Under the pieces are notes generated by a model. The model saw nothing but the letters and a program-made list of their open reading frames with translations. It did no database searches and was not told the origin of the DNA. From a virus (taxonomy: Duplodnaviria; Caudoviricetes), in IMG/VR virus record IMGVR_UViG_3300044822_000131, positions 1 to 54,728 of that record: a stretch of 54,728 nucleotides of DNA; one strand, 5' to 3'. Of this stretch, positions 918-49,140 are shown piece after piece. The position numbers and the translations under genes are program-made. Each line of letters starts with the position of its first letter. Position 1 is the stretch's first letter.

Positions 918-2464
918 AGCGTCAAGAACTCCAAGAAGTTCGTACGGCCGCGCAGCATGACCGAGGCGTCGAGCTTTTCCTTGACGACGCGCTTGGCAAA
1001 ACCGTCCGCGCTGTTCCGCATTTGAAAGTAGGTGATATGCGAGGTTAAGCCGGGGTGCCATATCCGGCGGCGCATTTGTTCGTGCATCGCCGGGTCCATC
1101 GACCAGGAATGAAAGAAGAGGTGCCGCGCGCGGGCAAGCGAGATCCCGACGCCGCCGACTTGCTCTTGGATAACGAGCACGCGCAGCGGTGTTTCGGCCG
1201 TCGAGTTTACGTCGAAGACCGAGAGCGCTGCGAGCGTTTCCGCCTCGGGCGTGTGGCCGTTGACGAGCGCGACGCTTTCAACGCCGTGCGCGTGCCCGAT
1301 CGCTTTGCGAAGCGCTTCGCCGGCAGCCGTGAACGCGTACGAGATGACGACCCGTTGCCCCATCGCGAGCGGTTCGGTTAGGTCCGAGAGCACCGCATCG
1401 GTCTTCGTGTGATGGATCCAGCGCAGGTCGCCCGTCCCCTCGTCGACCAAGAACCCGGCGCACAGTTGCAGGTGACGCAGCAGCTTCGTGAGCCGGTGCG
1501 TGCCGTCGACCGTGAGGTAGTCTTCTGCCAGCACAGACTCTTTGGCGAGTTCGTCGTAGAGCTTGCGCGCCCGTGGCGGGAAGTCGAGGTGCCGGGTCAC
1601 TTCGTTCCACGCTGACGGGCCGAAGTAGTCCTCGGCTTTCACGCGCTGCATGATCGAGAGCACGCGTTCGTAGAACTCCCCCTCGCGTTCGAGCCGCATC
1701 CGTTCGGGTTTGTTTTGGATGAACGGGTTGAGGTGAAAGTAGCGATCCAAGAACGCCTTTTTCGAGGTCCCAAACACGCTCGGATCGAGCACGACGTACT
1801 GCGCGTAAAAACTCGGAGCGCGCTGCGGGTCGGGCGTGCCCGAGAGCAGCCGCCGATACCCGGCACCTCGGGCGAGGCGCCGCAGCGCGCGCGAGCGGTG
1901 CGCGCCGGCCGACGAGATGAGGTGCGCTTCGTCCACGATGATCGCTTCCGGCCCCCACTTGCTTAGGAGGTCCGACAGCTTCTTCGAGGACGATCGCGCG
2001 CGGGCGAGCCGAGCTTCCGCGAGCGTGCCGAACGCCTCTCCCCGGAACAGGTAGGAGTCCTGCACGCGTTCGATCCGCTCGAAGTACACGTCGAGCGTGT
2101 CGAAGTTGAGCAGCAGCACGACGGGGGTGTTGCCCGCCGCGCCCGCAATCAGATCCTCGAGGACCTCCGCGCGCCAGGCCGTGTCGCTCTCGACGAGCGG
2201 AACGTAGTACCCAATCCCGCCCCCCGCGCTCGGGCGCCGGTAGCCTGCACGTTCAAGCTCGTCCGTCCACGTTAGGCGCAGCGGATTCTTCGGTCCGACG
2301 ATGAGCGTGCGCGCCACGCCGCGTTCGTGCTGTCGGCGCACGATTGCCGTAACTTCGGCGCGCGTCTTGCCGAGGCGCGGGTCGTACGCGAGATAAAACG
2401 CAGGCGCGAAGGCCCAATCGGAATACGCGTACTCTGCCTGGTAAGGACGTAACGGTTGAATCAT
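914..2464 (-). CDS. SNF2/DEAH-like superfamily 2 helicase (copy 2)
   Basis: PRLGKT (motif I), IIVDEAH (II), LSGTP (III), GGVGISL (V). Confidence 0.88.
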   Translation of the reverse strand: MIQPLRPYQAEYAYSDWAFAPAFYLAYDPRLGKTRAEVTAIVRRQHERGVARTLIVGPKNPLRLTWTDELERAGYRRPSAGGGIGYYVPLVESDTAWRAEVLEDLIAGAAGNTPVVLLLNFDTLDVYFERIERVQDSYLFRGEAFGTLAEARLARARSSSKKLSDLLSKWGPEAIIVDEAHLISSAGAHRSRALRRLARGAGYRRLLSGTPDPQRAPSFYAQYVVLDPSVFGTSKKAFLDRYFHLNPFIQNKPERMRLEREGEFYERVLSIMQRVKAEDYFGPSAWNEVTRHLDFPPRARKLYDELAKESVLAEDYLTVDGTHRLTKLLRHLQLCAGFLVDEGTGDLRWIHHTKTDAVLSDLTEPLAMGQRVVISYAFTAAGEALRKAIGHAHGVESVALVNGHTPEAETLAALSVFDVNSTAETPLRVLVIQEQVGGVGISLARARHLFFHSWSMDPAMHEQMRRRIWHPGLTSHITYFQMRNSADGFAKRVVKEKLDASVMLRGRTNFLEFLTL

Positions 2465-3230: not shown

Positions 3231-4654
3231 GCCGCGGCCCGCTTGCGGCGGATGCGGCCGAAGACGAGGCTCTCGCGGTCGGCGTTGCGGAGGGACTCGT
3301 GCAGGTCGCGCTTGTCGGCCAGCAGGTTCGCCACGAACGCATCGACCGTTCCGTCGACGTCGTAGTACGTGATCGTGCGCGGGACCGGGGCGCTGCCGTC
3401 GTGCTTGTAGACGCGATCCCGGCTCTGCTCGTCGTCGGTGAACGAGAACGTCCGCGAGAGGTAGGCGAGGTGCCGGCCCTCGCGCAGCGACACGCCCTCG
3501 GACCCCGACTGCATTTGGACGACGATTGCCGCCGCACCGGGGAAGGCGTTGAACGCTTCGATGTCCTCGGCCCCGGTGCCACGGCCCAAGCGGAACACCG
3601 GCATGTCAGGGAACGCGCGGCCGATCGTGGTTGCGGCCACCTCGCCTTCGTGGACGAAGCGGTGGAACACGACGATCTTCTCGTCCGACGCGACGATCTC
3701 GTCCATGTCGGCGATCAGCGCGTCGATCTTGGCCTGGTGCATCGGCAGCGCGCCCTTGGTCGTGCCGTCGGCGTCGAGGTCGGGCAGGAAGCCCGAGGTG
3801 AGCTGCTGGAGGCGCATCAGCCGCACGGCGGCGTTGGTGGCGGTGATCGTGGCCCAATCGTCGGATTGCAGGACCCACTCCTTGGCGAGCCGGTGGTAGA
3901 GGTTCCACGCTCGCGCGGGCATCTCGACCGTGCGGTGAATCTCTTGGTAGCGGTCCTTGCCGAACCAGTCCTCGCGCCGGTAGATGGCTGCCACCTTCAG
4001 GATCATCGCTTGGAGCTCGTCGACGTTGATGTGCGCCAGCACGCGCGAGGTATACATCGCGTCGCGGACGAGGAAGCGCTGGGCGAACCGCTCGTAGCTG
4101 GAGGGCCAGTTGTCGGGGTCGAGCGGCGCGAGCTGCGACCACAGCGAGCCGTAGTGGCGGGGGGCCGGCGTGCCGGTGAGGCTGCGGACGTAGGGTGTGG
4201 TGCGCGCGAGCTTGCGGTAGGCCCGGCCCCGATCGGTCGAGATCCCGCAGTAGTTGTGGCTCTCGTCGGCTACGAAAACGTCGAGCTTGGGGACGCCTGC
4301 GAAGGCGGCGTTCGCGAGCTTGTCGCGGTTGATGATGGCGACGCCCTCCCAGGCGGGGTCCGACACGAAGCGCTCGGCGGCGAGCCCACTGAGGTCGTAG
4401 AGCTCGTGCGTCGGGATGCCTGCGTCACCGAGCACCGACTTCCAGGTCGGGCCGACTTTGAGCGGCGCGGTCACGAGCGCCCGCCGCCACGCGCCGGCCC
4501 GCCGGCGCAGGGTGAGCGCTATCGCGTTCGTCTTGCCCATCCGGGGCGCGGCGTGAATCGCGCGCTTCGGGAGGTCGCCGTTGGTTTGGTCCTCGAGCCG
4601 CTCCCATTCGTAGGGGCCCTCGGGCTCGGGCAGTTTCCAGGGCCCGAGCTTCAT
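3227..4654 (-). CDS. SNF2/DExH-like superfamily 2 helicase (copy 1)
   Basis: PRMGKT, FVADESH, LTGTP, GSEGVSL, QSRDR. Confidence 0.88.
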   Translation of the reverse strand: MKLGPWKLPEPEGPYEWERLEDQTNGDLPKRAIHAAPRMGKTNAIALTLRRRAGAWRRALVTAPLKVGPTWKSVLGDAGIPTHELYDLSGLAAERFVSDPAWEGVAIINRDKLANAAFAGVPKLDVFVADESHNYCGISTDRGRAYRKLARTTPYVRSLTGTPAPRHYGSLWSQLAPLDPDNWPSSYERFAQRFLVRDAMYTSRVLAHINVDELQAMILKVAAIYRREDWFGKDRYQEIHRTVEMPARAWNLYHRLAKEWVLQSDDWATITATNAAVRLMRLQQLTSGFLPDLDADGTTKGALPMHQAKIDALIADMDEIVASDEKIVVFHRFVHEGEVAATTIGRAFPDMPVFRLGRGTGAEDIEAFNAFPGAAAIVVQMQSGSEGVSLREGRHLAYLSRTFSFTDDEQSRDRVYKHDGSAPVPRTITYYDVDGTVDAFVANLLADKRDLHESLRNADRESLVFGRIRRKRAAA

Positions 4655-4893
4655 GGACTCAGCAGCCCGGCTTCCACGCAGGCCCGAAGCAGGGCGGCGT
4701 GCTCGGCCCGCGCCCGCCGTTCAAGGCGAGAGACCTTCGTCTGCGTGATCCCGAGCTCTTTGGCTATGTCGTACTGGCTCCAACCCTTGGTGGCGCGCAG
4801 CGCTCGGATGCGCTTGAGGAGCAAGGCGTCGCGCTCGGCGCGTTCTGCTTTTGTCATGGTACTCATCATATCCGACTCAGTTAAACGAGTCAA
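4651..4893 (-). CDS. XRE-family helix-turn-helix regulator (start may be a downstream Met)
   Basis: IRALRATKGWSQYDIAKELGITQTKVSRLE. Confidence 0.85.
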   Translation of the reverse strand: MTRLTESDMMSTMTKAERAERDALLLKRIRALRATKGWSQYDIAKELGITQTKVSRLERRARAEHAALLRACVEAGLLSP

Positions 4894-4917
4894 TGAGGAG
4901 TAAGTGTAAACTGCCTA

Positions 4918-4977
4918 TGTATCATGTATCATGTATCACTAATATATAGATTTTTGTGATACATGATACATGATACA
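4918..4977. promoter_or_regulatory. Perfect 22-bp inverted repeat of (TGTATCA)x3 around a 16-bp AT-rich spacer; candidate replication origin or operator
   Basis: tgtatcatgtatcatgtatcac-taatatatagattttt-gtgatacatgatacatgataca, just downstream of the primase-helicase gene. Confidence 0.75.
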
Positions 4978-4991
4978 CGAACAGATGTTCG

Positions 4992-6716
4992 CTATTTTTC
5001 TGCCCGTAGATACCGCATGACCGTGTTGCGCGTTACCCCGAGCGCCGCCTCGATCTCCTTGATCGAAGCGCCGTCCGCTCGCATCTCGCGCGCCTGCTCG
5101 GCCCGGCTTGCGGCGGCTTCGCCCCGGTCGACCGGCTCCTCAATGTCGCCCGCCTGCGCCGAGGAGAGCGACACCCGTTCGGGGTCGCTGGGCAGCACGA
5201 GCTCCAAGGGCACGAGCGAGCCGTCTTCGAGCCGCTCCATTTGGACCGAGCCGTCGCGGGGGTCGACGAGCACCCGCGGCTCGCCCGTGAAGTCCAGGGC
5301 GTAGCCGGGCTCCGGCCAGTTTGTCTTCTCCACGGTGAGCCGCAACGGCCCGCCCGGCTTGCGGGTGGCGCGCAAGAACACCCGCGCCACGTTTCGCATC
5401 TCGGTCGAGCCGAGGTACGCCCCGCCCTTGTTCTCGTGGAAGGTGCCCACGATCGTGCAGCCGGTGCGGGTCGCGATGTCGGCCAGCGCCCCAAGCGCCG
5501 TTCGTGCCCGCTCGGCCGCGTTTTGGCCCTTCTCGTGCTCGAAGTGGGTGTAGATGCTGTCCAAGTACAGGAAACCGCAGCCGGACTCCACCAGGGCAGC
5601 GGAAAGGGCCGTTGCGTCGCGGGGAAGTTGGAGGCTCGAGCCGACCGGGATGTGATACAGCCGCGAGAGGTCCGCGCCGAGCACGGCTGCGGTCAGCGCG
5701 AAGATTTGGAACGGCTCCTCGACCCCGACATGGCCGAACAGGCCGCCCGCCCGCGTCACTCGCGCGGCCATCCACGAGAGGAGGCGCGACTTGCCGATGC
5801 CCCCCTCACCGTAGAGCAGCACCATCTCCCCCTTGGGGAAGAACCGCTCTAGCCACCACTCCTTCGCCTCGACGACGAGGTCCGAGTCTGCTGCCACCTT
5901 CCACCCCTCCGGCCGCAGGCGCACCGCCGGCGCGTCCGGCGACCCCAGCTCCCACTTGGCTGCCGACTTCGCGATGCGGGCCGCGTCGCGGGCCGAGTAC
6001 AGCCCGCGCGCCGGGTCCTGCTCCAGCACCCCCGAGCCGATGATGCCGGTGAGCATGGCGGCGATCGCGCCCTCGGAGAAGCGCCGGGGCCCCCGTAGGA
6101 ACCCCGCGATCTTGGCAAGCTCGTTGTCGTTCTCGCCGATCGGGATCTTGTCGCGCTCCTCGAGCGCGAGCGCCATCTCAATGTCGCCGTGGTCGGTCGC
6201 CCGCTCCAGCAGCCAGTCCGGTGCGGGTGCCGGCGCGCGGTCGTCGATCACATGGTAGCGGAACCCGCCCTCGCGCAGCGAGCCGGGCCCCACGATGTAC
6301 CCCTTGGCCTTGATGTCCCCGATGACGGTCTGCCGGCCGTTCTCGTCGGCCACGACGTATTTGCAGTTGCGCCCCTCCCAGCCCGGCGGCACCGTGAACA
6401 GCGCATGCACGCCGCGCAGCGTCTTCTGCCGCCAGGTCGGCCCGAGCCGCCGCAGCTCCGCCTCGGCTAGTGGCCCCCCAACGTCGAAGTCGGCCAGGAG
6501 GAATTGTCCGTCGAGCGCGATCCCGATGTTGGTATCTTCGCCCCAATCCAAGAACATGTCCTGAGAGACCGCGGAGCGGTGGCCGTGCGCGGCCTTGGGC
6601 TCCTTGCCGGTCGAGATGCGCCCGTTGGGCATAACGTCGCCGGGCTGATAGAGATGCAGCAGCCGCGCGCCGGGCGGGAGTCCCGCACGCACGCTGCGAT
6701 TAGCCTCGGCGCTCAT
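4992..6716 (-). CDS. Bifunctional primase-polymerase / AAA_25-type helicase with C-terminal HTH
   Basis: NIGI..LADFD, TLRGVHALF, GYIVGPGS (Prim-Pol); LYGEGGIGKS Walker A, LYLDSI Walker B; SIKEIEAALGVTRNTVMRYL HTH; start at the ATGA overlap 6716. Confidence 0.88.
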   Translation of the reverse strand: MSAEANRSVRAGLPPGARLLHLYQPGDVMPNGRISTGKEPKAAHGHRSAVSQDMFLDWGEDTNIGIALDGQFLLADFDVGGPLAEAELRRLGPTWRQKTLRGVHALFTVPPGWEGRNCKYVVADENGRQTVIGDIKAKGYIVGPGSLREGGFRYHVIDDRAPAPAPDWLLERATDHGDIEMALALEERDKIPIGENDNELAKIAGFLRGPRRFSEGAIAAMLTGIIGSGVLEQDPARGLYSARDAARIAKSAAKWELGSPDAPAVRLRPEGWKVAADSDLVVEAKEWWLERFFPKGEMVLLYGEGGIGKSRLLSWMAARVTRAGGLFGHVGVEEPFQIFALTAAVLGADLSRLYHIPVGSSLQLPRDATALSAALVESGCGFLYLDSIYTHFEHEKGQNAAERARTALGALADIATRTGCTIVGTFHENKGGAYLGSTEMRNVARVFLRATRKPGGPLRLTVEKTNWPEPGYALDFTGEPRVLVDPRDGSVQMERLEDGSLVPLELVLPSDPERVSLSSAQAGDIEEPVDRGEAAASRAEQAREMRADGASIKEIEAALGVTRNTVMRYLRAEK

Positions 6717-6934
6717 ACGTCGCGCCTTAAGGACGCGATAAACGCCGTTGTCTCCGCTAAGGCTGCCATGTACTCTGCCGAAGGTTGTTTGTCGCGCTCC
6801 TGGCCTGGGCGGTATGCGGCCCAAATCCGATCCCGGAGCGACTTCGGAAGCATGAACCAATGCCTCTTGCACATATGCATCCTCGGCGGGACCGGCACCT
6901 CGCACCCTGGGGCATGGCAGTGGTGTTCGCTCAT
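6713..6934 (-). CDS. Small Cys/His-rich phage protein
   Basis: HCHAPGC...MCKRHWFMLP; ATGA-coupled at both ends. Confidence 0.7.
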   Translation of the reverse strand: MSEHHCHAPGCEVPVPPRMHMCKRHWFMLPKSLRDRIWAAYRPGQERDKQPSAEYMAALAETTAFIASLRRDV

Positions 6935-9668: not shown

Positions 9669-9998
9669 TTACGTGCCCGCACCTCCTGCGCCGTCGCGCG
9701 CCCAAAACTCTGCGAACGCCTCGCGCGCCTCGCGCGCCGTGGCGAACTTCTTGGGGTAGCCGTCGAAGTAGATGGGCGTTAGCGTGCCGCCCGCCTCGAA
9801 CGAAACGAGGGCGAGACTACAGCCTGGGCCCCACCATTGGACACACAGCGCGGGCGTTTGCGGCAGGACCCATATCAGCCCGCCCGTGAGCGTATACTGC
9901 GCGCGCGGTGCGTTCGACGGTCGCACCCAAGGGGTCGCCGTGCCGTCCGCGTGAACGTGGCGCATCGCGCCGGATACGCGCGCCGCACGCCTAGGCAT
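9669..9998 (-). CDS. Hypothetical protein
   Basis: ORF in the early minus-strand operon; ends with FATAREAREAF. Confidence 0.5.
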   Translation of the reverse strand: MPRRAARVSGAMRHVHADGTATPWVRPSNAPRAQYTLTGGLIWVLPQTPALCVQWWGPGCSLALVSFEAGGTLTPIYFDGYPKKFATAREAREAFAEFWARDGAGGAGT

Positions 9999-10710
9999 CG
10001 TGACCACCTTTTAGCGCCCCGCGCTTGGCGCACGACACCCGCGCGCGGCAGAGACCGTTCCGCAGGTTGCGCGCCTTCGTCGCCCGCCCGCAGTGGAAGC
10101 ACCGCGCCTCGTCGTCGCCTTGCGGGATGCTGGCGAACACCTGCGCGACGAGCGCCGACATAACCGGGTCGACCTGGGCCAGCCGCTCGCGCGACACCTT
10201 GGGCCACGGAGAGCGCTCGTCGTTCGCGCCGACGTAGGCGCGTACCGACTCGGCAAAGTACTCGTCAACGCCGCTCGCGGCGTAGGCGGTCACGAACGCC
10301 CGCGCGTCGCGGAACGCCTCGCGCACGCGCTGATCGACGCCCGTGAAGTAAACGCCGCCGCCCAGCGCACAGTCGAGGCCGTGCGCGAACTCGTGGACCA
10401 GCGCCATGTCCGATGCAACTTCGCGCAGGTAGATGGTGCGTTCCGTGACCACGAACAGCCCGGCCGGCGCGACCGGCCAGGCATCAACGTCCACGCCCAA
10501 ACGCCGGAGCTCGGGCGATGCGGCGCAGTACCCTTCGCCTGCCGCGAGAGGGCGCACGGCGATGCCGTGCGCCTCCGCGTACGCGATGACCGACTCCGGG
10601 TAGTAGCGCACCAAGCGCTCGCGCATGTCGGCCGGAATCCCCGCGCCGCCTAGCATGTCGGGCACCCTGGCCGTTCGCACGCCCCAATATCCGGGTCGCC
10701 GCCGTCGCAC
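9991..10710 (-). CDS. Zincin metallopeptidase resembling the anthrax lethal factor / Pro-Pro endopeptidase-type domain (start 10710 or 10656)
   Basis: LVHEFAHGLD plus downstream AYAASGVDEYFAES and LAQVDP. Confidence 0.8.
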   Translation of the reverse strand: MRRRRPGYWGVRTARVPDMLGGAGIPADMRERLVRYYPESVIAYAEAHGIAVRPLAAGEGYCAASPELRRLGVDVDAWPVAPAGLFVVTERTIYLREVASDMALVHEFAHGLDCALGGGVYFTGVDQRVREAFRDARAFVTAYAASGVDEYFAESVRAYVGANDERSPWPKVSRERLAQVDPVMSALVAQVFASIPQGDDEARCFHCGRATKARNLRNGLCRARVSCAKRGALKGGHDA

Positions 10711-11012
10711 GCCACCTCGCCGCCTTCGTCGTCGAAGGTGAACGTGATCGGTACGAACGGTTGACGGTTGTCGAACGCCACGACCGCTCGCAACGCAACT
10801 TCGGGAAGGGCGAGTGACCAGTTACCGAACCGGCCGAACGTCGTGCCGCCGACGGTAGCCGTCGGGTCCCATTGTTCGCGCAGCGCGACCGCGACCACGC
10901 AGCATGCGCAGTAGTCGTGCGGTAAGCCTGCGCCCGGGTTCTCGCGCCAAGCGGCCACCTGTGCCAGCGCCTGCGCGTTGTGCGCTTCGGTCACGTGAAT
11001 CGTCCGAATCAT
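10650..11012 (-). CDS. Hypothetical protein
   Basis: CCVVAVALREQ...FDNRQPFVPITFTF; coupled start. Confidence 0.6.
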   Translation of the reverse strand: MIRTIHVTEAHNAQALAQVAAWRENPGAGLPHDYCACCVVAVALREQWDPTATVGGTTFGRFGNWSLALPEVALRAVVAFDNRQPFVPITFTFDDEGGEVACDGGDPDIGACERPGCPTC

Positions 11013-11599
11013 AGCGCACCATCCAAGTCCAGGGCGTTGAGCGCGTCCCGGAGCTCGCGCAGCGTCGAAGTCGGAATATGCACCGAACCGTCGGTGTAGA
11101 GACCACCGATGGGCCCAATCGCCATCTCAACAGGCCCCGCCGCCGCGGCGCACGCCGCCGGATAGTCGGCACGCGGCACGCGCGTGGTCAGGAGCACGCC
11201 GTTGTCCATCGCGCCCATAACGACCCGTGACTCGCCGCGCGCCTGGTCCCAGAACTCCTCCGCCATCGCGCGCCCCTTCTGGTACGCCGCCTCGTCCGAC
11301 ACCTTCGCCGCCGCCCCGTCCCCGATCGGCCACGCGAAGTACACCGGCGTCGCACCCGTCGCATCCGGCAGCCCGGCCGCAAGGTGGTGCGTCCCGTTGT
11401 GGTGCGTGCAGCCGAGCACCACTTCGCCCGTCGGAGCCTTGGCGCGGCACCCGCCGTTCGTCGCGCCGCCGATCTCCTCAACGGTCCCGTGGTTCCACTT
11501 CGACACCGACGAGCCCAACGTCGCCGAACCCGCCGCCGTCAGCCGATAGCGCACGCTATCGCCAATGTCCGCCCGCGCCCGTTCACTGAGGTCCTTCAT
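11009..11599 (-). CDS. Hypothetical protein
   Basis: ATGA-coupled ORF in the early operon. Confidence 0.6.
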   Translation of the reverse strand: MKDLSERARADIGDSVRYRLTAAGSATLGSSVSKWNHGTVEEIGGATNGGCRAKAPTGEVVLGCTHHNGTHHLAAGLPDATGATPVYFAWPIGDGAAAKVSDEAAYQKGRAMAEEFWDQARGESRVVMGAMDNGVLLTTRVPRADYPAACAAAAGPVEMAIGPIGGLYTDGSVHIPTSTLRELRDALNALDLDGAL

Positions 11600-11835
11600 A
11601 CCGCCACCCCCGTAACGTCGCGAACGTAGTCTCCCGCGCCCTCGACGATAGCGACCATCTTGGCCACGATGTCAGCCGTGACCACCGATCTGCTACGCCC
11701 AGCCCGGATGAGGACCAGGGCGTTCCCGTGCCCCGCCGCGACGAGCCGCTCAACGTCTTTGTCGGTCAGGCCGCAGAACGCGGCTTCCGCCGTTACCACG
11801 CCTGCCTTCACGGCGGCGTCTAAACTGTTTGCCAT
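11596..11835 (-). CDS. Hypothetical protein, first gene of the leftward arm
   Basis: AAGGGAG RBS before ATG 11835 (MANSLDAAVKAG). Confidence 0.65.
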   Translation of the reverse strand: MANSLDAAVKAGVVTAEAAFCGLTDKDVERLVAAGHGNALVLIRAGRSRSVVTADIVAKMVAIVEGAGDYVRDVTGVAV

Positions 11836-12042
11836 TCGTACTCCCTTTCGCCGGGCCCGGCCATCCGCGGTGGCTGTCGATTCAGTACCGTCGTACACCG
11901 GGCCCCGCAGGGTCCGTTCGGCGCAAGCATGCTGTTCGCCCCCTACTCCCTGCTAAACGAAAAAATCTTTACAATTCCCATTTTCCTGCCGATCTCACCA
12001 AACTTTAATGTAGTCGGTTTGACCTGTAAAACCTTACACCGG

Positions 12043-12051
12043 TGCTAAACT
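12043..12051 (+). promoter_or_regulatory. Candidate extended -10 promoter upstream of the hairpin array
   Basis: TGcTAAACT in the AT-rich intergenic zone; TGTAA-aacc-TTACA inverted repeat at 12025-12038. Confidence 0.4.
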
Positions 12052-12071
12052 ATGGCACTGTAGCAACGCGA

Positions 12072-12254
12072 ACTAGCTATGCTGTCGCATAGCTAGTGCG
12101 TAGTGAGCCGGCGACGCCGGCGTCTAGCTAGCGCGCGCTATGCGCGCGTAGCTATGACTAGCTACACCCGCTCGCGCGGGTGTAGCCACACCTAGCTACC
12201 CTCGGTAGCTAGGTCCCACCACTTGCTAGGACCGCCCTGGGGGGCGGTTCTAGC
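12072..12254. repeat. Tandem array of about six hairpins, five with (C)TAGC(TA)-based stems
   Basis: actagctatgc-tgtc-gcatagctagt; gacgccggcgtc; tagcta-g-cgcgcgc-tat-gcgcgcg-tagcta; gctacacccgc-tcgc-gcgggtgtagc; acctagctacc-ctc-ggtagctaggt; gctaggaccgccc-tggg-gggcggttctagc. Confidence 0.9.
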
Positions 12255-12361
12255 TACGTGGGGGGGTAGGGGGGGTACCTCTCTGACGTATACGTTTATC
12301 TGACTCCGCTTGCTCGGACGCTAGGGACATCGCGCCCAAAGCGTGGTACGCTTCGAGTACC

Positions 12362-12841
12362 GTGGACGACTACGAGCTCCGAACGCTCCTCGCGACGATC
12401 CTTCATAAGCTCACCGAGCTCACCCGAAAGGTGGATGCCGTGGCAACCTCTCAAGCCCAACTCGACGCCTACATAGAAAGCGTGCTCGTGCCGGCGTATG
12501 CCGCGCTCGAGGCGCAGGGGACGCAGATCTTGGCGGCCGTCAACGCCCTGGTCGCGGCCTATCAGGCCAATCCCCAGGAAGATCTGACGCCGCAACTGAG
12601 CGAGTTGCAGACCCTGGCCGGGAAGATGTCGACCGATCAGACGCAGGCCGGCCAGTTTTTGACCCAGCTCCAGTCGGAGACTCCGCCCAATGCGTCGTCC
12701 GGGGCGGGGGGGACGGCCACGCAGTCGGTGGCGGCATCGGCGCGCGTGACGGCGGCGGGGAACCCGGCGGGGGTCTCGGCGACGTCGCCGGGGCAGCCGG
12801 GGGCTGCCGGCTCGGGAGGGACCACGGTCGGCTCGGAGTAA
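12362..12841 (+). CDS. Hypothetical coiled-coil protein with low-complexity tail
   Basis: First rightward ORF, helical heptad pattern. Confidence 0.65.
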   Translation: MDDYELRTLLATILHKLTELTRKVDAVATSQAQLDAYIESVLVPAYAALEAQGTQILAAVNALVAAYQANPQEDLTPQLSELQTLAGKMSTDQTQAGQFLTQLQSETPPNASSGAGGTATQSVAASARVTAAGNPAGVSATSPGQPGAAGSGGTTVGSE

Positions 12842-12933
12842 CACTCGGCGCACGCCGCACGCACGCCTGACCAGGGTGGGCCCCTCTCGATCGCAACCGT
12901 CACGCACAGGCGGGTGGGGCGGTCGAGGGGGGC

Positions 12934-12962
12934 TTGTTCATGTGAACGAGGGGTGCTAGAAT
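12934..12962 (+). promoter_or_regulatory. Sigma70-type promoter, probably giving a leaderless mRNA
   Basis: TTGTTC-17 bp-TAGAAT with TG extension; ATG 6 nt after the -10. Confidence 0.55.
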
Positions 12963-12968
12963 CGGGGC

Positions 12969-13187
12969 ATGCCGATGTACGAGTACGAGTGTCCTAGCCC
13001 AGAGTGCGGGCAGCGCGTGGCGCTGCGCCGCGCCTTTGCCGAGCGCGACCTGCCGGTCTTGTGTCCGAACGCCCTTCACCTCGCGTTCGAGGGCAGGGGG
13101 GACTGCGAGGAGATGAGGCTCGTGGTCTCGGTGCCCGGCGTGGCGCACGTTGAGGGCGGGACCGGCGCGTCGCGATCGGCGCGCTGA
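12969..13187 (+). CDS. FmdB-family zinc-ribbon protein
   Basis: MPMYEYECPSPECG...CP...MRLVVSVP. Confidence 0.8.
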   Translation: MPMYEYECPSPECGQRVALRRAFAERDLPVLCPNALHLAFEGRGDCEEMRLVVSVPGVAHVEGGTGASRSAR

Positions 13188-13570
13188 TGTGCGTCGGGGA
13201 CGAGTTTGACCAGGTGCCGATCGAAGACAAGGCGTTCTGGGAGCAGGTGGCCGGCCGTGACATGCATCAGCGCGCATACGATGCCATGATGGCGAGGATC
13301 GCCGCCGGCGAGACTGTCGAGGTCGAGCATGACCCCCCGTCGCCCATGTGCTACATCGACCGGCTCACGGCGCAGGAGGTTGTACCGTCGGCGGGGACGG
13401 CGCAGGGGGTTGTACTGTCGCCGGAGATCCCGCAGCAGCCGCGCATCCTCGACCGCACCCACGAGACCGATGATCCCGTGCCGCTTGGGAACGGGTGGAC
13501 GCTCGTGTGGCACGCTGACTTTCGGGCGTTCGGGAGGCGGTGGTTCATCTCGGTCGAGCGCAAGCCGTGA
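13187..13570 (+). CDS. Hypothetical protein
   Basis: TGATG-coupled ORF. Confidence 0.55.
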   Translation: MCVGDEFDQVPIEDKAFWEQVAGRDMHQRAYDAMMARIAAGETVEVEHDPPSPMCYIDRLTAQEVVPSAGTAQGVVLSPEIPQQPRILDRTHETDDPVPLGNGWTLVWHADFRAFGRRWFISVERKP

Positions 13571-13758
13571 TCGTGGTGCATATCTCGCTCGCGGCGTTTT
13601 TGGGGTGCATCGTCAACGCCGTGCTGTGCTTCGCGAGAGGGGATGTGTCGGCTGTGGTGTGGTCCGTGGCGGCGCTCGGGTGGCTTGGGTCCGCGTGCAA
13701 CGCCTTTGCGTTCGTCAATGCTTTGAAAGAGGTCGACAAGGGGTGTGGGAAGCCGTGA
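13567..13758 (+). CDS. Small membrane protein
   Basis: Two hydrophobic segments; GTGA coupling. Confidence 0.5.
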   Translation: MIVVHISLAAFLGCIVNAVLCFARGDVSAVVWSVAALGWLGSACNAFAFVNALKEVDKGCGKP

Positions 13759-14060
13759 GCACCGAGGTTGAGGGAGGTCGCCAGGTTGCGCTTATCGTGC
13801 GTAAGGGGCCCGCGGCGAAGGTGTACTTCGATGACGAGAGCGGCCAGTTTCGCGTCAACGTCATCGTGCGTGGGGCGTTCGTTCCGCGGCGCTTCGCGGT
13901 GGCCCCGGTGGAGGGCCGGTGTAACGGCGATGAGGCGTTCGTGTGCTTCCCGCAGGGGGACGCTCTCCCGGCGGAGGTGACGGCGTGTTATCGGTTTCAT
14001 ACGTGGACGATCGACGTTGAGTTGACGCCGGAGGGGTGGAAGGTGGAGAGTGCCGGCTGA
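13755..14060 (+). CDS. Hypothetical protein
   Basis: GTGA-coupled ORF. Confidence 0.5.
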   Translation: MSTEVEGGRQVALIVRKGPAAKVYFDDESGQFRVNVIVRGAFVPRRFAVAPVEGRCNGDEAFVCFPQGDALPAEVTACYRFHTWTIDVELTPEGWKVESAG

Positions 14061-14295
14061 GTTCCGATGCCTGTGCTGCGGGCACGATTGGGTGCAAGGG
14101 GGGACGGATGCGGCGGCTGGGCCGGCCAACGGCCAGTGCGTGCGCTGCGGGTCCCTCGTTGAGCCCGCCACGATGATCGTCGAGACCGCCCCGGATGCGA
14201 CGGTGGTGATGGTTCCGAATCGGCCGGGGCGGGATTGGGAGCATCAGGCCCACGCGCCGCAGGGCCGCAAGCCCTCGAAGGATGCGCTCGAGTGA
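14050..14295 (+). CDS. Small zinc-ribbon protein
   Basis: FRCLCCGHDW...CVRCGS. Confidence 0.6.
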   Translation: MPAEFRCLCCGHDWVQGGTDAAAGPANGQCVRCGSLVEPATMIVETAPDATVVMVPNRPGRDWEHQAHAPQGRKPSKDALE

Positions 14296-14612
14296 CGCGC
14301 CGGTCGGGGCAGGATCATCCGGCTGCGAAGCTGACTGAGGAGCAGGTTGCGGCGATCCGCGGCTCGCACATGGGGCCCTCGGAGTTGGCGCGGCTGTTTG
14401 GGGTGTCGAAGGCGACCATTTCCCTCATTAAGAGGGGTAAGTCGTGGACTGCTCCCCCGCAACCACAACCACAACCGGGTGTGGGGGGTGGAGAGCAGGC
14501 TGCGGTCGGTCGTAGCGCTCCCGAGCCGGTCCAGGGGGGGTCCGACGTAGCACGAACGGCGGACGCGGCAGGCTCGGGAGCGTTCCCGGTGGACCGGCGG
14601 GCCGCGAAGTGA
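14292..14612 (+). CDS. Stand-alone HTH DNA-binding protein of the type found at the C-terminus of HNH homing endonucleases
   Basis: GQDHPAAKLTEEQVAAIR...ELARLFGVSKATISLIKRGKSW. Confidence 0.75.
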   Translation: MTRRSGQDHPAAKLTEEQVAAIRGSHMGPSELARLFGVSKATISLIKRGKSWTAPPQPQPQPGVGGGEQAAVGRSAPEPVQGGSDVARTADAAGSGAFPVDRRAAK

Positions 14613-18642: not shown

Positions 18643-20313
18643 GTGAACGACGACTTGCGGGGGTTGCTCGACGACCTCGACCGCGCTACAATAATGCCCG
18701 CGACTCCTTTCGCTACGCCGCAGCCGCCCCCCGTGTACTCCGAGGGGTGGCTGTATCGTTTCTGGAGGGATGATTGGGGCAGCCCGGTCTCTCCCCAACC
18801 GCACTGCGAGATGGCCGACTACATTCAATCGGCGCTCGGCGACTGCTCGTTCTCGGGCAGCGAGAAGAAGCTCGTCATGCTCGGCGTCCCGCGCAACACG
18901 TTGAAGACGACCAACGTGTCGGAAGCGACGCCGGTCGCCGTTCTCACCAAGAACCCGAACGCGAAGATACTGCTCGACGGCTTCCGCCATTCGATCAGTA
19001 AACTCCGGCTGCGCGCGATTCGCCGCAAGCTCGAACGCGACGTCGTCTTAGATCAGAAATACGGCACGATGGCTTGGAAGCCGATGTTCCGCGAGGATAT
19101 TTGGAACGCGGCCGAGATCCGCATCACGGCCGCGACCGACCTCGGCGTGCGCGAGTCGTCGATCGCGACGGCCGGCGTCGACTCCTCGGCGACGTCGCAG
19201 CACTTCGACCTCATCATCCCCGACGACTTGGTCAACGAGATCAACTCACGCACGCAGGACTCGCGCGAGCGCGTCTACGAGCATTTGATGGATCACATGG
19301 CGATCCTCAATCCCGGCGGCGTGATCCTCATGGTGTTCACGTTTTGGCATGTCAACGATGCCTACGCGCGCATCATCAAACTCGACGAAGCGCGCGAGCG
19401 CCGCGGCGAGCGGCCACTGTGGCGCAAGATGATCCGCTCGTGCTATGACGGCCCGAACGGCCTCTACTGCCCGACCCGCCTTTCCTACGAGCACCTCGAG
19501 GAACAGCGCGAGCTCATCGGCCCCTACCGCTTCGCCGCGAACTATTTGATGAAGCCGATCGCGGATGAGGACAAGACCTTCAACATGGACGCGCTCAAGA
19601 TGCGCCCGTTCAAGTTCTTCTCCACCGCCGAGCAGAGCTTCGGCGGCGTCATCCGCACCGAGAACGACGCGCAGTACATCGTCGAGACCACGATCGCGTG
19701 GGATCCGATGGGCCGCAAGGTCCGCAGCACCTCCGACTCCCACGGCATCACGGTCGTGGCGACCGACGTCGACGACAGGTGGTGGATACCCGAAGCGCTC
19801 TCAATCAAGACGACGCCCGAGTCCATCATCAACCGGATGTGTCTGCTCATTCAAATCTACCGGCCGTGGACGGTGTCGATTGAGGACGTCGTGGGCCAGG
19901 GGCTGTGGCTCGACATGTTAGCCGACGAGTGCGTGCGGCGCGGTATCGGCGTCGGGTTCACCGAGTTTGCGACGGGCGGCATCCCGAAAGAGCAGCGCAT
20001 CATTCTGCTGCAACCGCGCTGGGCGCGCGGCGGCATGATCCTTCGATCGAAACCGGATGCGCCCGACGAGCCGATGCACAAGGAGTTTTACAACCAACTC
20101 GACACGTTTTCGCCCGGCGGCATCGACCACGAAGACGTCCTCGACTCCCTGGTGCAGCACCTCCGGCTCACCCGCCGGCCCGACATTCGCGCGCTCCCGC
20201 GCGGCGAGAGCAACCCGGTCGACCCCGAGTACGCCGCCTTCCGTAAGCGACAACAGCAGGATGATCCGGGGATGCCGCTCACCGGCCGGTTCGGGACGAC
20301 CTGGACACCGTAG
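18643..20313 (+). CDS. terL: Terminase large subunit
   Basis: VPRNTLKTT Walker A variant, HFDLIIPDDL Walker B, nuclease acidic motifs AWDP, SDS, HEDVLDSL. Confidence 0.9.
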   Translation: MNDDLRGLLDDLDRATIMPATPFATPQPPPVYSEGWLYRFWRDDWGSPVSPQPHCEMADYIQSALGDCSFSGSEKKLVMLGVPRNTLKTTNVSEATPVAVLTKNPNAKILLDGFRHSISKLRLRAIRRKLERDVVLDQKYGTMAWKPMFREDIWNAAEIRITAATDLGVRESSIATAGVDSSATSQHFDLIIPDDLVNEINSRTQDSRERVYEHLMDHMAILNPGGVILMVFTFWHVNDAYARIIKLDEARERRGERPLWRKMIRSCYDGPNGLYCPTRLSYEHLEEQRELIGPYRFAANYLMKPIADEDKTFNMDALKMRPFKFFSTAEQSFGGVIRTENDAQYIVETTIAWDPMGRKVRSTSDSHGITVVATDVDDRWWIPEALSIKTTPESIINRMCLLIQIYRPWTVSIEDVVGQGLWLDMLADECVRRGIGVGFTEFATGGIPKEQRIILLQPRWARGGMILRSKPDAPDEPMHKEFYNQLDTFSPGGIDHEDVLDSLVQHLRLTRRPDIRALPRGESNPVDPEYAAFRKRQQQDDPGMPLTGRFGTTWTP

Positions 20314-20851: not shown

Positions 20852-22318
20852 GTGAAGCGTCGCGCTCTACTCGCCGTCAGCATCGCCGTGTTGATGGTCT
20901 TGCCGTCGCTTGTCCGCGCTCAACTCGGGCCGAACGTCACGAGCGGCCTGTTCTCCTCAACGAGCGCGAGCGGGTCGTTCCCCCGGCTCAACGTCAAGGG
21001 GGACCAAACCTGCACCTTCTTCGTGAACAGCGGCGGTGGTGCGACCTTCACCGTCACCGGGGCCAGCGACGCCGGCGTGAGCGGCACCCCGACGATGGTC
21101 ACGAACGCGCTGTTTCCCTCGAGCGGCGTCATCGTGGCCCCCGCCGCGAACACCTACTACTCAGGCTCGGTCTCGTCCCTCAACACCTTCTTCCAAGTAA
21201 CGTGGACCGGCAACACCGGCACCGTCCAGGGGACCGAGAGCTGCACCGCCGCTAACTCGGGCGGCACGTTCACCGGCACCGTGACGGCCAACGTCCCAAC
21301 TCCGCTCTCGGTGATCGGGCCCGGCGGCTCTCCAGTCCCGGTAAATATCTCAGGGGGCACCGGGTTTCCGACTCCCGTGCCGTATGCGACGAGCGCGGGC
21401 ACGGTCCTCAAAGTTGACGGCTCCGCCGTTACCCAGCCCGTTAGCGGCTCGGTCACGGTTTCGGGCACCGTCACGGCGACGGGCGTCGCGACCCCGGTTC
21501 CTTATGCGACGAGCGCCGGCACCGTCCTAAAAGTAGACGGCTCTGCCGTAACTCAGCCTGTTTCCGGCACCATCACCTGTTCAAATTGCACAGGCGCTAC
21601 CCCGATTCCCTATGCTACAGCGGCCGGCACGATCCTAGAAACGCAGATCGTGAACTCGCCTGCGCCAACGTACACGCCGCCCGTGGTCGCGACGACGCCG
21701 ACGCCGGGGCTGCCCGTGAACGCGGCCCTGCTCGGGTTCAATGCCTCCGGGCAGACCCAGGGCGTGTCCGTGGACTCGAACGGTTACGTGAACGTGGACT
21801 GCAAAACCAACTGCACGGTGTTTCCGTATGGGACCTCGACCGGGCAGACGGCGCTCTCGAACTCGTTCTTGGGGGCGGCGCTCGTCGGCTCCGGTGGCAC
21901 GGTCGCGCCGTTACAAGGGGACGCGGCCTGGAACCTGTACGTCGCCGAGCGCGCGTCAACAGGCGGCGGGTTCACGCACTACAGCGCCACCTCGATCACG
22001 GCCGGGACGGCAGCCACGATCTCGTCCACGGCCAACACCACGCTCGCGGCGCTCACCGTGTCCTGGTCCGTGCCGTCCACGACGACGAACTGTTACCTGA
22101 CGCTCTACAACTCGGCCTCGCCGACGGTCGGAACGGGCTTCGTTGCGATCTACCCGATCAATACCGCCGCGCCGGGCGAACTCGCGCTTCCGATCCCGCC
22201 GACGATAGGCGGCAAGTTCAGCACAGCTATTTCCTACGCGCTGACGACGACGCCCACGGGCTCGACGGCGTGCAATTCCGCCAGCAATCAGGTTTGGCTC
22301 GACGCCTGGTACATCTAA
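20852..22318 (+). CDS. Signal-peptide-bearing Thr/Ser/Gly-rich beta protein with internal repeats
   Basis: MKRRALLAVSIAVLMVLPSLVRA signal; TPVPYATSAGTVLKVDGSAVTQPVSG twice plus a partial third. Confidence 0.85.
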   Translation: MKRRALLAVSIAVLMVLPSLVRAQLGPNVTSGLFSSTSASGSFPRLNVKGDQTCTFFVNSGGGATFTVTGASDAGVSGTPTMVTNALFPSSGVIVAPAANTYYSGSVSSLNTFFQVTWTGNTGTVQGTESCTAANSGGTFTGTVTANVPTPLSVIGPGGSPVPVNISGGTGFPTPVPYATSAGTVLKVDGSAVTQPVSGSVTVSGTVTATGVATPVPYATSAGTVLKVDGSAVTQPVSGTITCSNCTGATPIPYATAAGTILETQIVNSPAPTYTPPVVATTPTPGLPVNAALLGFNASGQTQGVSVDSNGYVNVDCKTNCTVFPYGTSTGQTALSNSFLGAALVGSGGTVAPLQGDAAWNLYVAERASTGGGFTHYSATSITAGTAATISSTANTTLAALTVSWSVPSTTTNCYLTLYNSASPTVGTGFVAIYPINTAAPGELALPIPPTIGGKFSTAISYALTTTPTGSTACNSASNQVWLDAWYI

Positions 22319-23856
22319 TTAGCGAGCAAGAGAAACCTAGCGACGAGCAAATCGCGGACGGGGCTCGCCGCATCCTCACGGCGATTGACAACGGCACGTT
22401 TCGCCGCGATGATCCCGGCGCGATCCGCATGATCGGCGAATGGGCGTTCGATAACCTCGCGGCCCTGGTTCGTTTCTGTGCGTTCTTCGTGCTGTTCGTG
22501 ACGGCGATCTTTCCGTGCGCGGCGAGTGCGGCACCGGCGGTTGTACAGAGCGTTCAGTGTTCTACCGTCGGCTCAGCGTGTAGCACAATCACGCTTTCAG
22601 CGACTCCGACGGCCGGGGACGCCGTAGCCGTTATGGCTGTGGGTGCGGGCGTGGGTAACGCACCAGGCAACATTTACGCCGATGCATCCTCCCATAATCT
22701 AACTATTCAGGCGAACCCTTATTATACTTCAACGTGTGCTGGAGGAGGCAACTGCGCTTCCGCCGTTCAAGCGTATTTAGCGCCATCGGGACTTTCGAGC
22801 GGAGCCTACTCAAGTTTCGGTTCTGGAGGTTGTAACTGTGCTGGCGTTGGGGCCGTAGAGATGAGCGGCGTAAATGCAGCGGTTTCAACAAGCACCGTCG
22901 GCACGTCTACTACCGCCACGCTTTCCGGGTTCCCCTCGGGCTCGATTATCGCGTTTGCCGTATCGCAATCGGGTTCGACAAGCAACCCGACGATCTCCAA
23001 TGCAGGCACCGTCACCTATCTCAATCCTTACTCGTCTGGGTCCAACCTCGACGTTTCAGGGTTTGCCATCGCAAGCGGTACGTCTACAACACTTACTTTA
23101 GGGGCTAGTGCGACTTCTAATTCGGTTATTGCTCTAACCGCGTTCTACTACATCGCCCCGACCGTCACCGTATCGCAAACCTGCGTGCAGTCAGGCACGA
23201 CCTGCGTGTTCGGTTCCGCGCCATCGAACGGGAGCGAGGTGGTTGGCGCGGTCGTCGGGGACGGCACCTGCACTCCTACAGTCACGGATTCTAACTCCGT
23301 TGCGTTGACGAGCCGCTACTGTTTTGGCATTGACGCTAGCTCGGGCCTGAGCGGCCAGGACTACAAGGTATCGGGGTCGCCGACCTCGACCTACGCCTGC
23401 CTGAGTGGCCCAACGTGCGCGCTATTAAACGTAACAGGCACGACGCTGCCCGGCACCTACAGTTCCACGACGGGACCCGATAGCGGCGTTGTTTCAACGA
23501 GCGTTGCAACGACCCCGGGCGACCTTGTTGTGTGCGCGGCTAGCGGTGGCGTGTCGGCGTTTTCGGGAATGAGTTTCGTGTCGGGCGTAAACTTCAACGT
23601 TCAAAACCTCTACTATAGCTACGGCGGGGGAGGTTCGAGTAGGGCCGTTATCTATGCGACCGCTACGGGAAGTTCTGCGACCTGCCAAACCAGTAGCTCC
23701 AACGCCGGATTTACGCTCGGGATCGGCCTTGCGGACTACACCCCCGGCTCATCGTCATCGACGAGCAAGGCGTGCAGCGCGTTCCCCTGGCCGTGTGCTT
23801 TCCAATCCGGCTACGCCCCGCGCCGCAAGGCAACGCTCGCGGACCTGCTGCGCTAG
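22318..23856 (+). CDS. Secreted or membrane-tethered Cys/Ser-rich protein (start either ATT 22318 or ATG 22429)
   Basis: RFCAFFVLFVTAIFPCAASA hydrophobic segment ending in A-x-A; many paired Cys. Confidence 0.75.
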   Translation: MSEQEKPSDEQIADGARRILTAIDNGTFRRDDPGAIRMIGEWAFDNLAALVRFCAFFVLFVTAIFPCAASAAPAVVQSVQCSTVGSACSTITLSATPTAGDAVAVMAVGAGVGNAPGNIYADASSHNLTIQANPYYTSTCAGGGNCASAVQAYLAPSGLSSGAYSSFGSGGCNCAGVGAVEMSGVNAAVSTSTVGTSTTATLSGFPSGSIIAFAVSQSGSTSNPTISNAGTVTYLNPYSSGSNLDVSGFAIASGTSTTLTLGASATSNSVIALTAFYYIAPTVTVSQTCVQSGTTCVFGSAPSNGSEVVGAVVGDGTCTPTVTDSNSVALTSRYCFGIDASSGLSGQDYKVSGSPTSTYACLSGPTCALLNVTGTTLPGTYSSTTGPDSGVVSTSVATTPGDLVVCAASGGVSAFSGMSFVSGVNFNVQNLYYSYGGGGSSRAVIYATATGSSATCQTSSSNAGFTLGIGLADYTPGSSSSTSKACSAFPWPCAFQSGYAPRRKATLADLLR

Positions 23857-48973: not shown

Positions 48974-49140
48974 GGCGTATCACCGCGTATCCACGGGACG
49001 CGCGTCGCTAGTGCGTAGAGTCTACGAGCGTCCGCTATCGTGTACTCGACCGCGCTCGGGCCTGCGCCGTACCATCCCGCCGCCGCACGGATGCAGGCTG
49101 CTCGGATGCAGGCGTCGATGACTTCGGTGTCAGTTGGCAT
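48970..49140 (-). CDS. Small hypothetical protein (56 aa)
   Basis: GGAGGGAG RBS; MPTDTEVIDACIRAAC...; stop overlaps the convergent stop. Confidence 0.45.
   Translation of the reverse strand: MPTDTEVIDACIRAACIRAAAGWYGAGPSAVEYTIADARRLYALATRVPWIRGDTP

Follow-up and report, generated by a model that had tools for sequence, protein, structure and literature searches.

The hairpin array

The window analysed here is the whole of IMG/VR record IMGVR_UViG_3300044822_000131, a viral contig (Caudoviricetes) of 54,728 bases that is classed as linear, with a CheckV completeness of 100 and a G+C content of about 65%. Its two gene arms diverge from a spacer of 526 bp, bounded by the start of the left open reading frame (ORF) at 11835 (-) and that of the right ORF at 12362 (+), and this spacer contains an array of abutting hairpins that is real, far above chance expectation and symmetric on both strands. 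The array belongs to no curated family, and is best read as resembling the known structured, repeat-rich control and origin regions of phages. More specifically, and only tentatively, it can be regarded as a DNA-level cis element of the central control region, most likely a part of replication initiation in which hairpins similar to single-strand initiation (ssi) signals carry a recognised TAGCTA foot. Under any reading, the array is a compact testable element of 190 bp.

Six adjacent inverted repeats (H1 to H6; Table 1) occupy positions 12069-12254, with stems of 6-13 pairs, loops of 3-4 nt and energies of -11.8 to -26.2 kcal/mol when each hairpin is folded individually as RNA. TAGCTA forms the foot of H1, H3, H4 and H5 (the 3' foot of H4 being TAGCCA), the corresponding element of H6 is GCTAG/CTAGC, and H2 has none; the upper stems and loops vary among the hairpins while pairing is kept. 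A first-pass annotation, made from the sequence alone, had described back-to-back hairpins at the divergence point of the two arms, five of which share a foot and differ in upper stem and loop, with a G-T pair in one stem; all of this is borne out, with coordinates that agree to within a few bases. The G-T pair lies in H6 on the + strand, and the TAGCTA/TAGCCA foot of H4 adds another on the - strand only, so that the 67 pairs of the array stems include one G-T pair per strand, each at a different hairpin, and neither strand is favoured. Because the stems are almost purely Watson-Crick on both strands, palindromes acting at the DNA level are favoured over an element that acts as RNA only; indeed, the paucity of G-T pairs speaks against selection on RNA alone, since RNA stems tolerate G-U pairs, which become A-C mismatches on the opposite strand. 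Symmetry this close to perfect is in keeping with palindromes whose importance lies in the DNA, where they could form cruciforms or, once the strands are apart, a hairpin on each.

The array stands out from the rest of the genome by several measures. The RNA fold of 12043-12290 (248 nt) has an energy of -152.1 kcal/mol on the + strand (z -7.99) and -146.8 kcal/mol on the - strand (z -10.41), with 0 of 200 shuffles as good in either case, and in a genome-wide scan four of the five most over-structured 120-nt windows fall at 12041-12280, making the array the most structured stretch of the genome; no comparable hairpin region was found elsewhere in it except at 4881-5000, the sequence of which differs. 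Counting perfect-stem hairpins only, 12060-12260 contains six with 54 paired bp, where shuffles average 0.47 and 3.2; none of 500 shuffles matched this, the most paired bp reached by any being 21. The genome counts of TAGCTA and CTAG, which the first-pass annotation had proposed as a check, are equally telling: eight of the nine copies of TAGCTA in the 54,728 bases lie within 12074-12256 (shuffles, n = 100: mean 1.9, maximum 7, none reaching nine), and CTAG, which is avoided genome-wide (46 observed, 95 expected), has nine of its 46 copies inside the array.

Known classes of structured or repeated element do not account for it. Rfam 15 returned no family at gathering score, the sole match being BTH_s39 (19.6 bits against 77, E 0.12). 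ARAGORN found no tRNA or tmRNA gene in the whole window, and the scan of 11500-13000 for intrinsic U-tract terminators gave 0 terminator-like sites on either strand, with no T run after any of the six stems. Direct-repeat families have two copies only, of at most 34 nt (the two longest 71-72% identical, the rest 8-14 nt), where a CRISPR-like repeat would comprise at least three near-identical direct repeats of about 23-47 nt with unique spacers of similar length. The first-pass annotation was thus right that the array is not CRISPR, tRNA or terminator. Repetitive extragenic palindromes and bacterial interspersed mosaic elements (REP/BIME) are clustered, imperfect intergenic palindromes of about 30 nt with a conserved GTAG/CTAC-type foot. 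The array is similar in that its palindromes are clustered and share a comparable foot, three of its stems ending in GTAGC, but REP/BIME elements are one unit copied genome-wide, whereas the upper stems differ here and the palindrome is not dispersed, only one TAGCTA lying outside the array. In the excerpts of the literature retrieved for comparable arrays nothing close was described, the pLS20 'zipper' attenuator being a single long stem and not an array.

The spacer around the array

To the left of the array lies an A/T-rich promoter zone, which contains the genome's sole CTTTAC (at 11967), two copies of TGCTAAAC (at 11951 and 12043) and a leftward promoter-like site. The first-pass annotation had also pointed to a TG-extended -10 about 20 nt upstream of the hairpins and to a tract following them; both are present, the former, by eye, as TGcTAAACT and the latter as G7-TA-G7. 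Its motif makes TGcTAAACT a candidate promoter for rightward transcription through the array. Another motif of the TG-extended -10-like type, TGgTACGCT, was seen by eye at 12344-12352, directly before the GTG at 12362. The G7-TA-G7 tract fits the pattern G3-N1-G3-N2-G3-N1-G3, with three tetrads, and could form a quadruplex. The 3' half of H6 belongs, according to the alignment, to a block that is conserved in L137, the only close relative found that covers the spacer.

Table 1. Coordinates and properties of the features discussed in the text (window positions unless a relative is named).
Feature	Position	Strand	Properties
Hairpin H1	12069..12100	both	Stem CTAGCTATGC / GCATAGCTAG, 13 pairs, loop TGTC; -18.1 kcal/mol (+), -19.0 (-) as RNA
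Hairpin H2	12107..12121	both	Stem GCCGGC / GCCGGC, 6 pairs, loop GAC, without TAGCTA foot; -11.8 kcal/mol on either strand
Hairpin H3	12125..12154	both	Stem TAGCTAGCGCGCGC / GCGCGCGTAGCTA, 13 pairs, one bulged G, loop TAT; -20.9 kcal/mol on either strand
Hairpin H4	12161..12186	both	Stem GCTACACCCGC / GCGGGTGTAGC, 11 pairs (12 on -), loop TCGC; -22.5 kcal/mol (+), -24.7 (-)
Hairpin H5	12190..12214	both	Stem ACCTAGCTACC / GGTAGCTAGGT, 11 bp perfect, loop CTC; 100% complementary; -18.0 and -18.6 kcal/mol
Hairpin H6	12225..12254	both	Stem GCTAGGACCGCCC / GGGCGGTTCTAGC, 13 pairs including one G-T on + strand, loop TGGG; -26.2 and -22.5 kcal/mol
A/T-rich promoter zone, left of array	11945..12060		51% G+C in the 120-nt window at 12001 (genome about 65%), the lowest in the region
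sigma70-like leftward promoter	12030-12002	-	-35 TTTACA 12030-12025, -10 TAAAGT 12007-12002; only site reported by the promoter scan
TG-extended -10-like motif	12042..12050	+	TGcTAAACT, about 20 nt before H1; by eye, unreported by the promoter scan
G7-TA-G7 tract	12260..12275	+	After the array; identical in L137, invariant alignment columns
Conserved block	12290..12306	+	ATACGTTTATcTGACTC; 14 nt past the G tract; block and spacing also in L137
G-run motif sites	window 12260-12306; L137 2250-2296; L141 1279-1320; L129 5870-5910; L139 4868-4913; L414 107-155		
Inverted-repeat site	4917-4980 (context 4860-4991)		Three tandem TGTATCA and, 18 nt on, three tandem TGATACA; 28-nt inverted repeat, 93% complementary
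Prim-Pol, AAA_25 helicase and C-terminal helix-turn-helix (HTH) in one protein	4992..6905	-	PF09250 E 8.4e-11, PF13481 E 2.4e-17, HTH_7 E 2.5e-4 (below its cut-off)
First leftward-arm gene, 80-codon ORF	11596..11835	-	ATG at 11835, GGGAG-like sequence ahead of the ATG
First rightward-arm ORF, 159 aa	12362..12841	+	GTG start at 12362; low-complexity C-terminus; no family match

Comparison with relatives

Cultured phages are not close, the best identity of the large terminase (TerL) among GenBank phages being 24%, and a DNA search of 11000-14000 against GenBank phages, for near and distant similarity, gave no match. Queried one protein at a time with the two flanking ORFs and TerL, IMG/VR yielded nothing usable; the one locus found, L005, lacks synteny to the window. 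Relatives were taken from a TerL search that yielded 25 homologues besides the window's own, 17 of which were aligned with the query, the alignment being used to fetch IMG/VR, metagenome and genome loci. L137 (59% TerL identity) is syntenic with the window from window position 14292 onward. L122 has the same TerL identity as L137 and, apart from a constant offset, the same tblastx hit pattern; it is apparently this phage or a nearly identical one, on a contig that stops 3.6 kb before TerL; L213 (64% TerL identity) and L134 also stop short of the spacer.

The spacer of L137, at about 1600-2328, closes with the same G7TAG7, a 14-nt gap and the ATACGTTTATNTGACTC block. Just before this block, at 2104-2206, it has five short perfect hairpins with 31 pairs, none of them G-T, and three copies of TGTAGGCG also precede it. 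Under a stricter hairpin criterion the L137 spacer retains three hairpins with 23 paired bp, the shuffles averaging 0.10 and 0.7, and 0 of 500 shuffles match it. The hairpin sequences of the two phages do not align, the conserved part starting with the 3' half of H6; the L137 hairpins are devoid of TAGCTA and CTAG, and three of the five carry no repeated motif. Judging from these two sequences, structure recurs at the same place without conservation of sequence.

In four more distant relatives (L139, the same phage as L124; L141; L129; and G001) the homologous spacer contains many copies of CTTTAC/CTTAAC and their complements, followed by two G-run clusters (for example GGGGGGTAGGGGGG in L141). 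In L139, all three perfect copies of TTATCCACA, the DnaA box, in the 21.5-kb locus lie within 54 bp (4482-4535), interleaved with TTATGAACA-like variants, and are followed at 4600-4660 by about 60 bp of almost pure A/T. Every relative in which the spacer was examined thus has an array of a short motif, CTTTAC/CTTAAC in these four and TGTAGGCG in L137, as the window has TAGCTA, and these arrays look iteron-like by their sequences. The homologous spacer could not be placed in L126, L128 and L138, which are left out of the counts.

A G-run pair (G7TAG7 in the window and L137, G5-G7 runs in the distant relatives) keeps the same position, just upstream of the first rightward gene, across the clade (35-59% TerL identity; Table 1), the ATACGTTTATNTGACTC sequence after it being present in the two high-G+C members, the window and L137. 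As a general phage signal, G7TAG7 was considered and rejected: the 16-mer occurs in at least 121 IMG/VR stretches, compared with 59 for the swapped control G7ATG7, a modest, at least two-fold excess; among the matches listed, one of the 121 has a strict zinc-ribbon motif downstream, and L375 and L297, by eye, share its downstream sequence as far as the ORF start. A narrower pattern, G7TAG7 with CGTTTAT, matched one unrelated locus only.

Among the matches listed, the TAGCTA array had no analogue. A triple-TAGCTA pattern matched at least 116 IMG/VR stretches, the densest among the matches listed (L037 and L027) being plain tandem repeats, and such a cluster occurred in two of 374 genomes of the class to which the metagenome-assembled genome holding a relative's contig belongs, both again tandem repeats. 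An incidental case is an unrelated genome (L481/L483, G124:C4:410262-410372) with tandem repeats of about 36 nt, each starting with TAGCTA, and no hairpin array. In the 11 of 12 IMG/VR TerL relatives that were scanned, no window upstream of TerL is structured beyond -3.6 standard deviations; five loci (L122, L127, L130, L131 and L132) have less than 3.7 kb upstream of TerL and cannot contain the spacer. Separately, the strongest over-structured 120-nt window in most TerL relatives sits at the TerL start (L122 about 3600-3780, L125 about 5940-6120, L128 about 5370-5550, and others), with z of about -2.4 to -3.5 on the scale used for the window, and the genome studied is not outstanding there.

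A possible role in replication initiation

The arrangement of the spacer, in which an A/T-rich promoter zone is followed by six inverted repeats that could be extruded and then by the G7TAG7 tract, suggests how the array might work. Opening of the A/T-rich zone, and negative supercoiling from leftward and any diverging rightward transcription, would unwind the spacer, after which the same succession of hairpins would form on each strand. These hairpins, recognised through the TAGCTA duplex at their foot, would act as single-strand loading and priming signals for the Prim-Pol/helicase encoded by the phage, analogous to the ssi hairpins of RSF1010 oriV, while the adjacent G tract would help to hold the strands apart. 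What we infer in this scheme is strand separation or extrusion at the array, the binding of a protein to TAGCTA and a priming start at the array.

In RSF1010/R1162, the ssi hairpins of oriV are recognised by the primase RepB', and the RSF1010 RepB' and RepA-type enzymes use these single-strand hairpins as start sites. The two systems are alike in placing hairpins on separated strands in a region with short repeats and an A/T-rich part, and in encoding their own primase of the archaeo-eukaryotic (AEP) type and a RepA-like (AAA_25-type) helicase, both domains being found in one protein of the phage (4992..6905), which is a candidate for the enzyme acting on the hairpins. They differ in that RSF1010 has two ssi sites, one per strand, and the phage six abutting palindromes with a shared foot; the likeness meant here is one of arrangement.

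Several observations point in this direction. The leftward promoter-like site at 12030-12002 and the first rightward gene at 12362 flank the array; L137 has a hairpin cluster at the corresponding place, and each relative a short-motif array in this spacer; DnaA boxes and an A/T stretch are present in the homologous spacer of L139; and the phage encodes, besides the Prim-Pol, AAA_25 and HTH protein, a family A polymerase, a PD-(D/E)XK exonuclease and a Sak4-like protein. In sequence terms, eight copies of TAGCTA in 183 bp beside an A/T-richer window (at 12001, 51% G+C) are what an iteron-type origin would have, and hairpins that fold on both strands, in a phage with its own AEP primase and helicase, are what would be expected of ssi-type signals. 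Among the ideas offered in the first-pass annotation, a single-stranded DNA or cruciform signal fits best, in view of the symmetric palindromes, the A/T-rich promoter neighbour, the Prim-Pol/AAA_25 protein and the DnaA boxes of L139, although the window itself lacks such boxes.

Other observations weigh against a role in replication initiation. No DnaA box cluster was found, with 0 perfect copies of TTATCCACA or TTGTCCACA in the whole genome and two mismatches in the best match in the spacer. The cumulative GC skew reaches its global minimum near 49,000 and shows no more than a local one near 12,000. The G+C-rich centres of the hairpins disfavour spontaneous cruciform extrusion, and transcription of the array is conceivable from the TGcTAAACT upstream (12042-12050). 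The hairpin cluster of L137 is much weaker than that of the window (z -2.9 and -4.1, with three of 200 shuffles as good on the + strand), and the excess is absent from the homologous spacers of L139, L141, L129 and G001, which have 1, 0, 1 and 0 hairpins, respectively (72, 500, 19 and 500 of 500 shuffles reaching the observed value), so that hairpins are not required in the spacer of this clade. The expectation expressed with the first-pass annotation, that relatives should have hairpins here, holds for the only close relative that covers the place, in unrelated sequences, and fails for the four distant ones.

A further difficulty is a second site, 4917-4980, which resembles a classical origin or operator no less than the array does, and from its sequence could be either. 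Its G+C content is 32%, with an A/T-rich centre, and it ranks second in the genome for over-structuring. It immediately follows the Prim-Pol/helicase gene on its 3' side and precedes a 66-aa HTH ORF (4657-4857) by 60-120 nt.

Phages place origins, early promoters and end-processing signals in structured, repeat-rich non-coding hubs, which are almost never defined for uncultured phages. Here, the hub of a clade with no cultured relative is laid out as diverging promoters, a lineage-specific block of repeats or hairpins, a conserved G-run motif and the first gene. If the hairpins are indeed loading or priming signals of the Prim-Pol/helicase, they would provide a defined substrate for a class of enzymes whose origin recognition in phages is poorly known.

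Alternative explanations

Unlikely, yet ahead of the other alternatives, is an RNA-level element, in which the array would be transcribed rightward from TGcTAAACT as a structured 5' leader or a short non-coding RNA; a leader might stabilise the transcript, pause the polymerase or form an attenuator block that is overridden by an early phage factor before the 36-kb rightward arm is read. The position of TGcTAAACT about 20 nt before H1 would suit such an element, as would a similar TGcTAGATT ahead of the L137 repeats (2021-2029), which MAFFT did not align with it. The hairpins are very stable as RNA, and the lysozyme, terminase and portal genes all belong to one block on the same strand, 12362-48973, which could need gated read-through. 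As a gate for this late arm, the array would represent a new form of timing control. On the other hand, the promoter scan did not report the upstream motif, no U tract stands behind any stem, no Rfam family matches, and no antiterminator gene was recognised. One G-U in 67 pairs and strands that fold equally argue in the same direction, and in L141 and L139, whose G+C content is low, the G-runs precede the best rightward promoter-like site, a good sigma70-like one immediately before the first gene, so that the equivalent block would lie between the diverging promoters and stay untranscribed. The more particular proposal of the first-pass annotation, a non-coding RNA that serves as protein sponge, antitoxin or crRNA mimic, finds no backing in these results: besides the missing Rfam match, there is no CRISPR-like repeat, G-U pairs are almost absent and the strands are equally paired.

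The clustering of eight of nine TAGCTA copies also brings to mind an operator array, in which TAGCTA (in its longer form CTAGCTAG) would be the duplex site of a phage regulator of the two diverging promoters and the hairpin potential a by-product. The spacer of every relative contains a short repeated motif of its own, and 2 kb downstream there is a gene (14235-14612) for an HTH protein that is conserved among the relatives. We nevertheless consider this rather unlikely: complementarity reaches 2-9 bp past TAGCTA in every TAGCTA hairpin, with inner sequences that differ; the distance between paired TAGCTA sites ranges from 7 to about 19 bp, which a fixed dimer geometry does not explain; and H2, like three of the five L137 hairpins, carries no repeated motif.

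It seems improbable that the spacer is a concatemer junction or lies near a genome end, with hairpins that would serve in end processing, protection or an injection pause. Such a terminal, packaging or injection signal would have parallels in two well known regions. The left end of T7 (NC_001604) has non-coding DNA before the early genes that combines copies of a short motif (CCTAAAG), a G/C-run element (C5-ATA-G5), a small hairpin and early promoters, and the spacers of the present clade likewise combine xTAAAG-type repeats (on the complementary strand) with G-runs. T7 is also a podovirus, and the phage studied has podovirus-type genes (SU10-like portal, internal virion protein); however, the T7 repeats are direct and do not form stems, all T7 genes run in one direction from a true genome end, and the TerL proteins of cultured podoviruses are only distantly related (at most 24% identity). 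In T5 and its relatives the injection-stop (iss) region, as described in excerpts of one report, is a large untranslated region packed with repeats, inverted repeats and palindromes and containing eight DnaA boxes (10.1101/866236), boxes that recur in the homologous spacer of L139; unlike the array, it lies in the long terminal repeat of a siphovirus-type genome, whereas the window has neither DnaA box nor terminal repeat and the phages are unrelated. The contigs of L123, L124 and L125 begin within the spacer, but L123 and L124 break in a low-complexity A/T run. Moreover, the window is classed as linear with no end repeat, and 10000-13338, array included, is matched without a difference by a 4,076-base contig from what is probably the source run (in a second run, X2, the array is not covered). 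Two complete relatives, G001 and G003, have end repeats (99 and 97 nt) at different places, the second in coding sequence, which look like assembler overlaps. G7TAG7 is often found at contig ends, but so is the control G7ATG7, probably as an assembly artefact.

A protein-independent structural switch at a transcription-activated origin, formed by the hairpins together with G7TAG7, is similarly improbable. Transcription from the flanking promoters would then drive cruciform and quadruplex formation and keep the spacer open, giving a primer or loading site for a replisome of the Prim-Pol/helicase and the family A polymerase. Were this the case, the spacer would be a counterpart in a bacterial virus of the mitochondrial DNA origins that combine G-runs and stem-loops, the G-run part being common to an uncultured podovirus-like clade and the hairpins an addition of its high-G+C members; the comparison with mitochondria is supported solely by the occurrence of the G7TAG7 complement in papers on vertebrate mitochondrial control regions, as excerpted.

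Palindromes may also arise and spread in a fast-evolving spacer by template switching or slippage and be tolerated there without specific function. In keeping with this, the hairpin parts of the window and L137 do not align while the flanking block does, the distant relatives have no hairpins, and self-complementary stem units (TAGCTA, GCGCGC, GCCGGC) can grow by local duplication. This explanation is even less probable, given six strong hairpins over 186 bp with almost no unpaired spacer (54 paired bp, against at most 21 in shuffles), a separate cluster at the same position in L137 and a concentration of the otherwise avoided CTAG for which a neutral origin is hard to envisage.

Promoters of the N4 type are short hairpins with 3-nt loops that stand before early genes and are read in extruded form, needing a giant virion RNA polymerase. 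The array is similar in having short-loop hairpins in tandem ahead of early genes, and its concentration of CTAG would also suit decoy sites for a host defence or CTAG-binding protein, as proposed in part in the first-pass annotation, but both ideas are very unlikely, since no RNA polymerase family matches any of the 62 ORFs scanned against Pfam and PHROGs, the largest ORF has 815 aa, the hairpins abut each other and do not stand one before each gene, and those of L137 are devoid of TAGCTA and CTAG.

Genome organization

Genes were called from ORFs and third-position G+C. The leftward block occupies the window start up to 11835 together with 49035-54649, and encodes two SNF2-type helicases, a PAPS-reductase-like protein, an HNH endonuclease and a DUF932 protein, as well as the exonuclease and Sak4-like protein mentioned above and the family A polymerase, which is fused to a UDG domain. 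Its first gene, scanned in a longer form (11596-11898), has no Pfam or PHROG match. The rightward block, from 12362 to 48973, is a single long same-strand run of about 36 kb in which small early genes precede structural genes. It opens with small ORFs, among them a zinc-ribbon protein (a weak match, 12969-13187) and the conserved HTH protein, and further on encodes a lysozyme, a GroES-like protein, TerL (18643-20313), the SU10-like portal (29020-31032) and the internal-virion-protein-like gene.

The 159-aa ORF that opens the rightward arm is missing at the equivalent position of L137, where the zinc-ribbon gene stands first. Around its start, bases 12343-12370 resemble the 5' end of the L137 zinc-ribbon gene at 2329-2352 (TTCGAGTAC-CGTGGACGA compared with TTACGAGTACACGTGCACGA). 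The likeness is weak, and may be a remnant of the insertion of the 159-aa ORF ahead of the zinc-ribbon gene.

Between terminase and portal, about 8.7 kb (20852-27861) hold five ORFs of about 488, 500, 710, 111 and 547 aa with no Pfam match and a single weak PHROG match (26218-27861), to a family of unknown function; the stretch at about 22400-23600 has a lower G+C content and a weak codon-position signal. In the left arm, the nearest Atlas clusters by predicted structure (TM 0.75) to the protein encoded at 9991-10710 (-) are hypothetical proteins, mostly from Vulcanimicrobiota, which may offer a weak lead to the host and is consistent with the peat source. Look-alikes of the same protein by features are named after zinc metallopeptidase families (score 0.86, below the family-naming level), and the Atlas comparison of two left-arm proteins gave no DNA-binding lead.

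Both ends of the contig, 3-1061 (-) and 52202-54649 (-), carry the UDG-domain/family A polymerase N-terminal region, with 47% amino-acid identity over 128 aa. Of the two copies, the one at the window start is truncated by the contig end, so that the record is cut within a gene despite its completeness rating of 100%, and the phage may have two polymerase paralogues.

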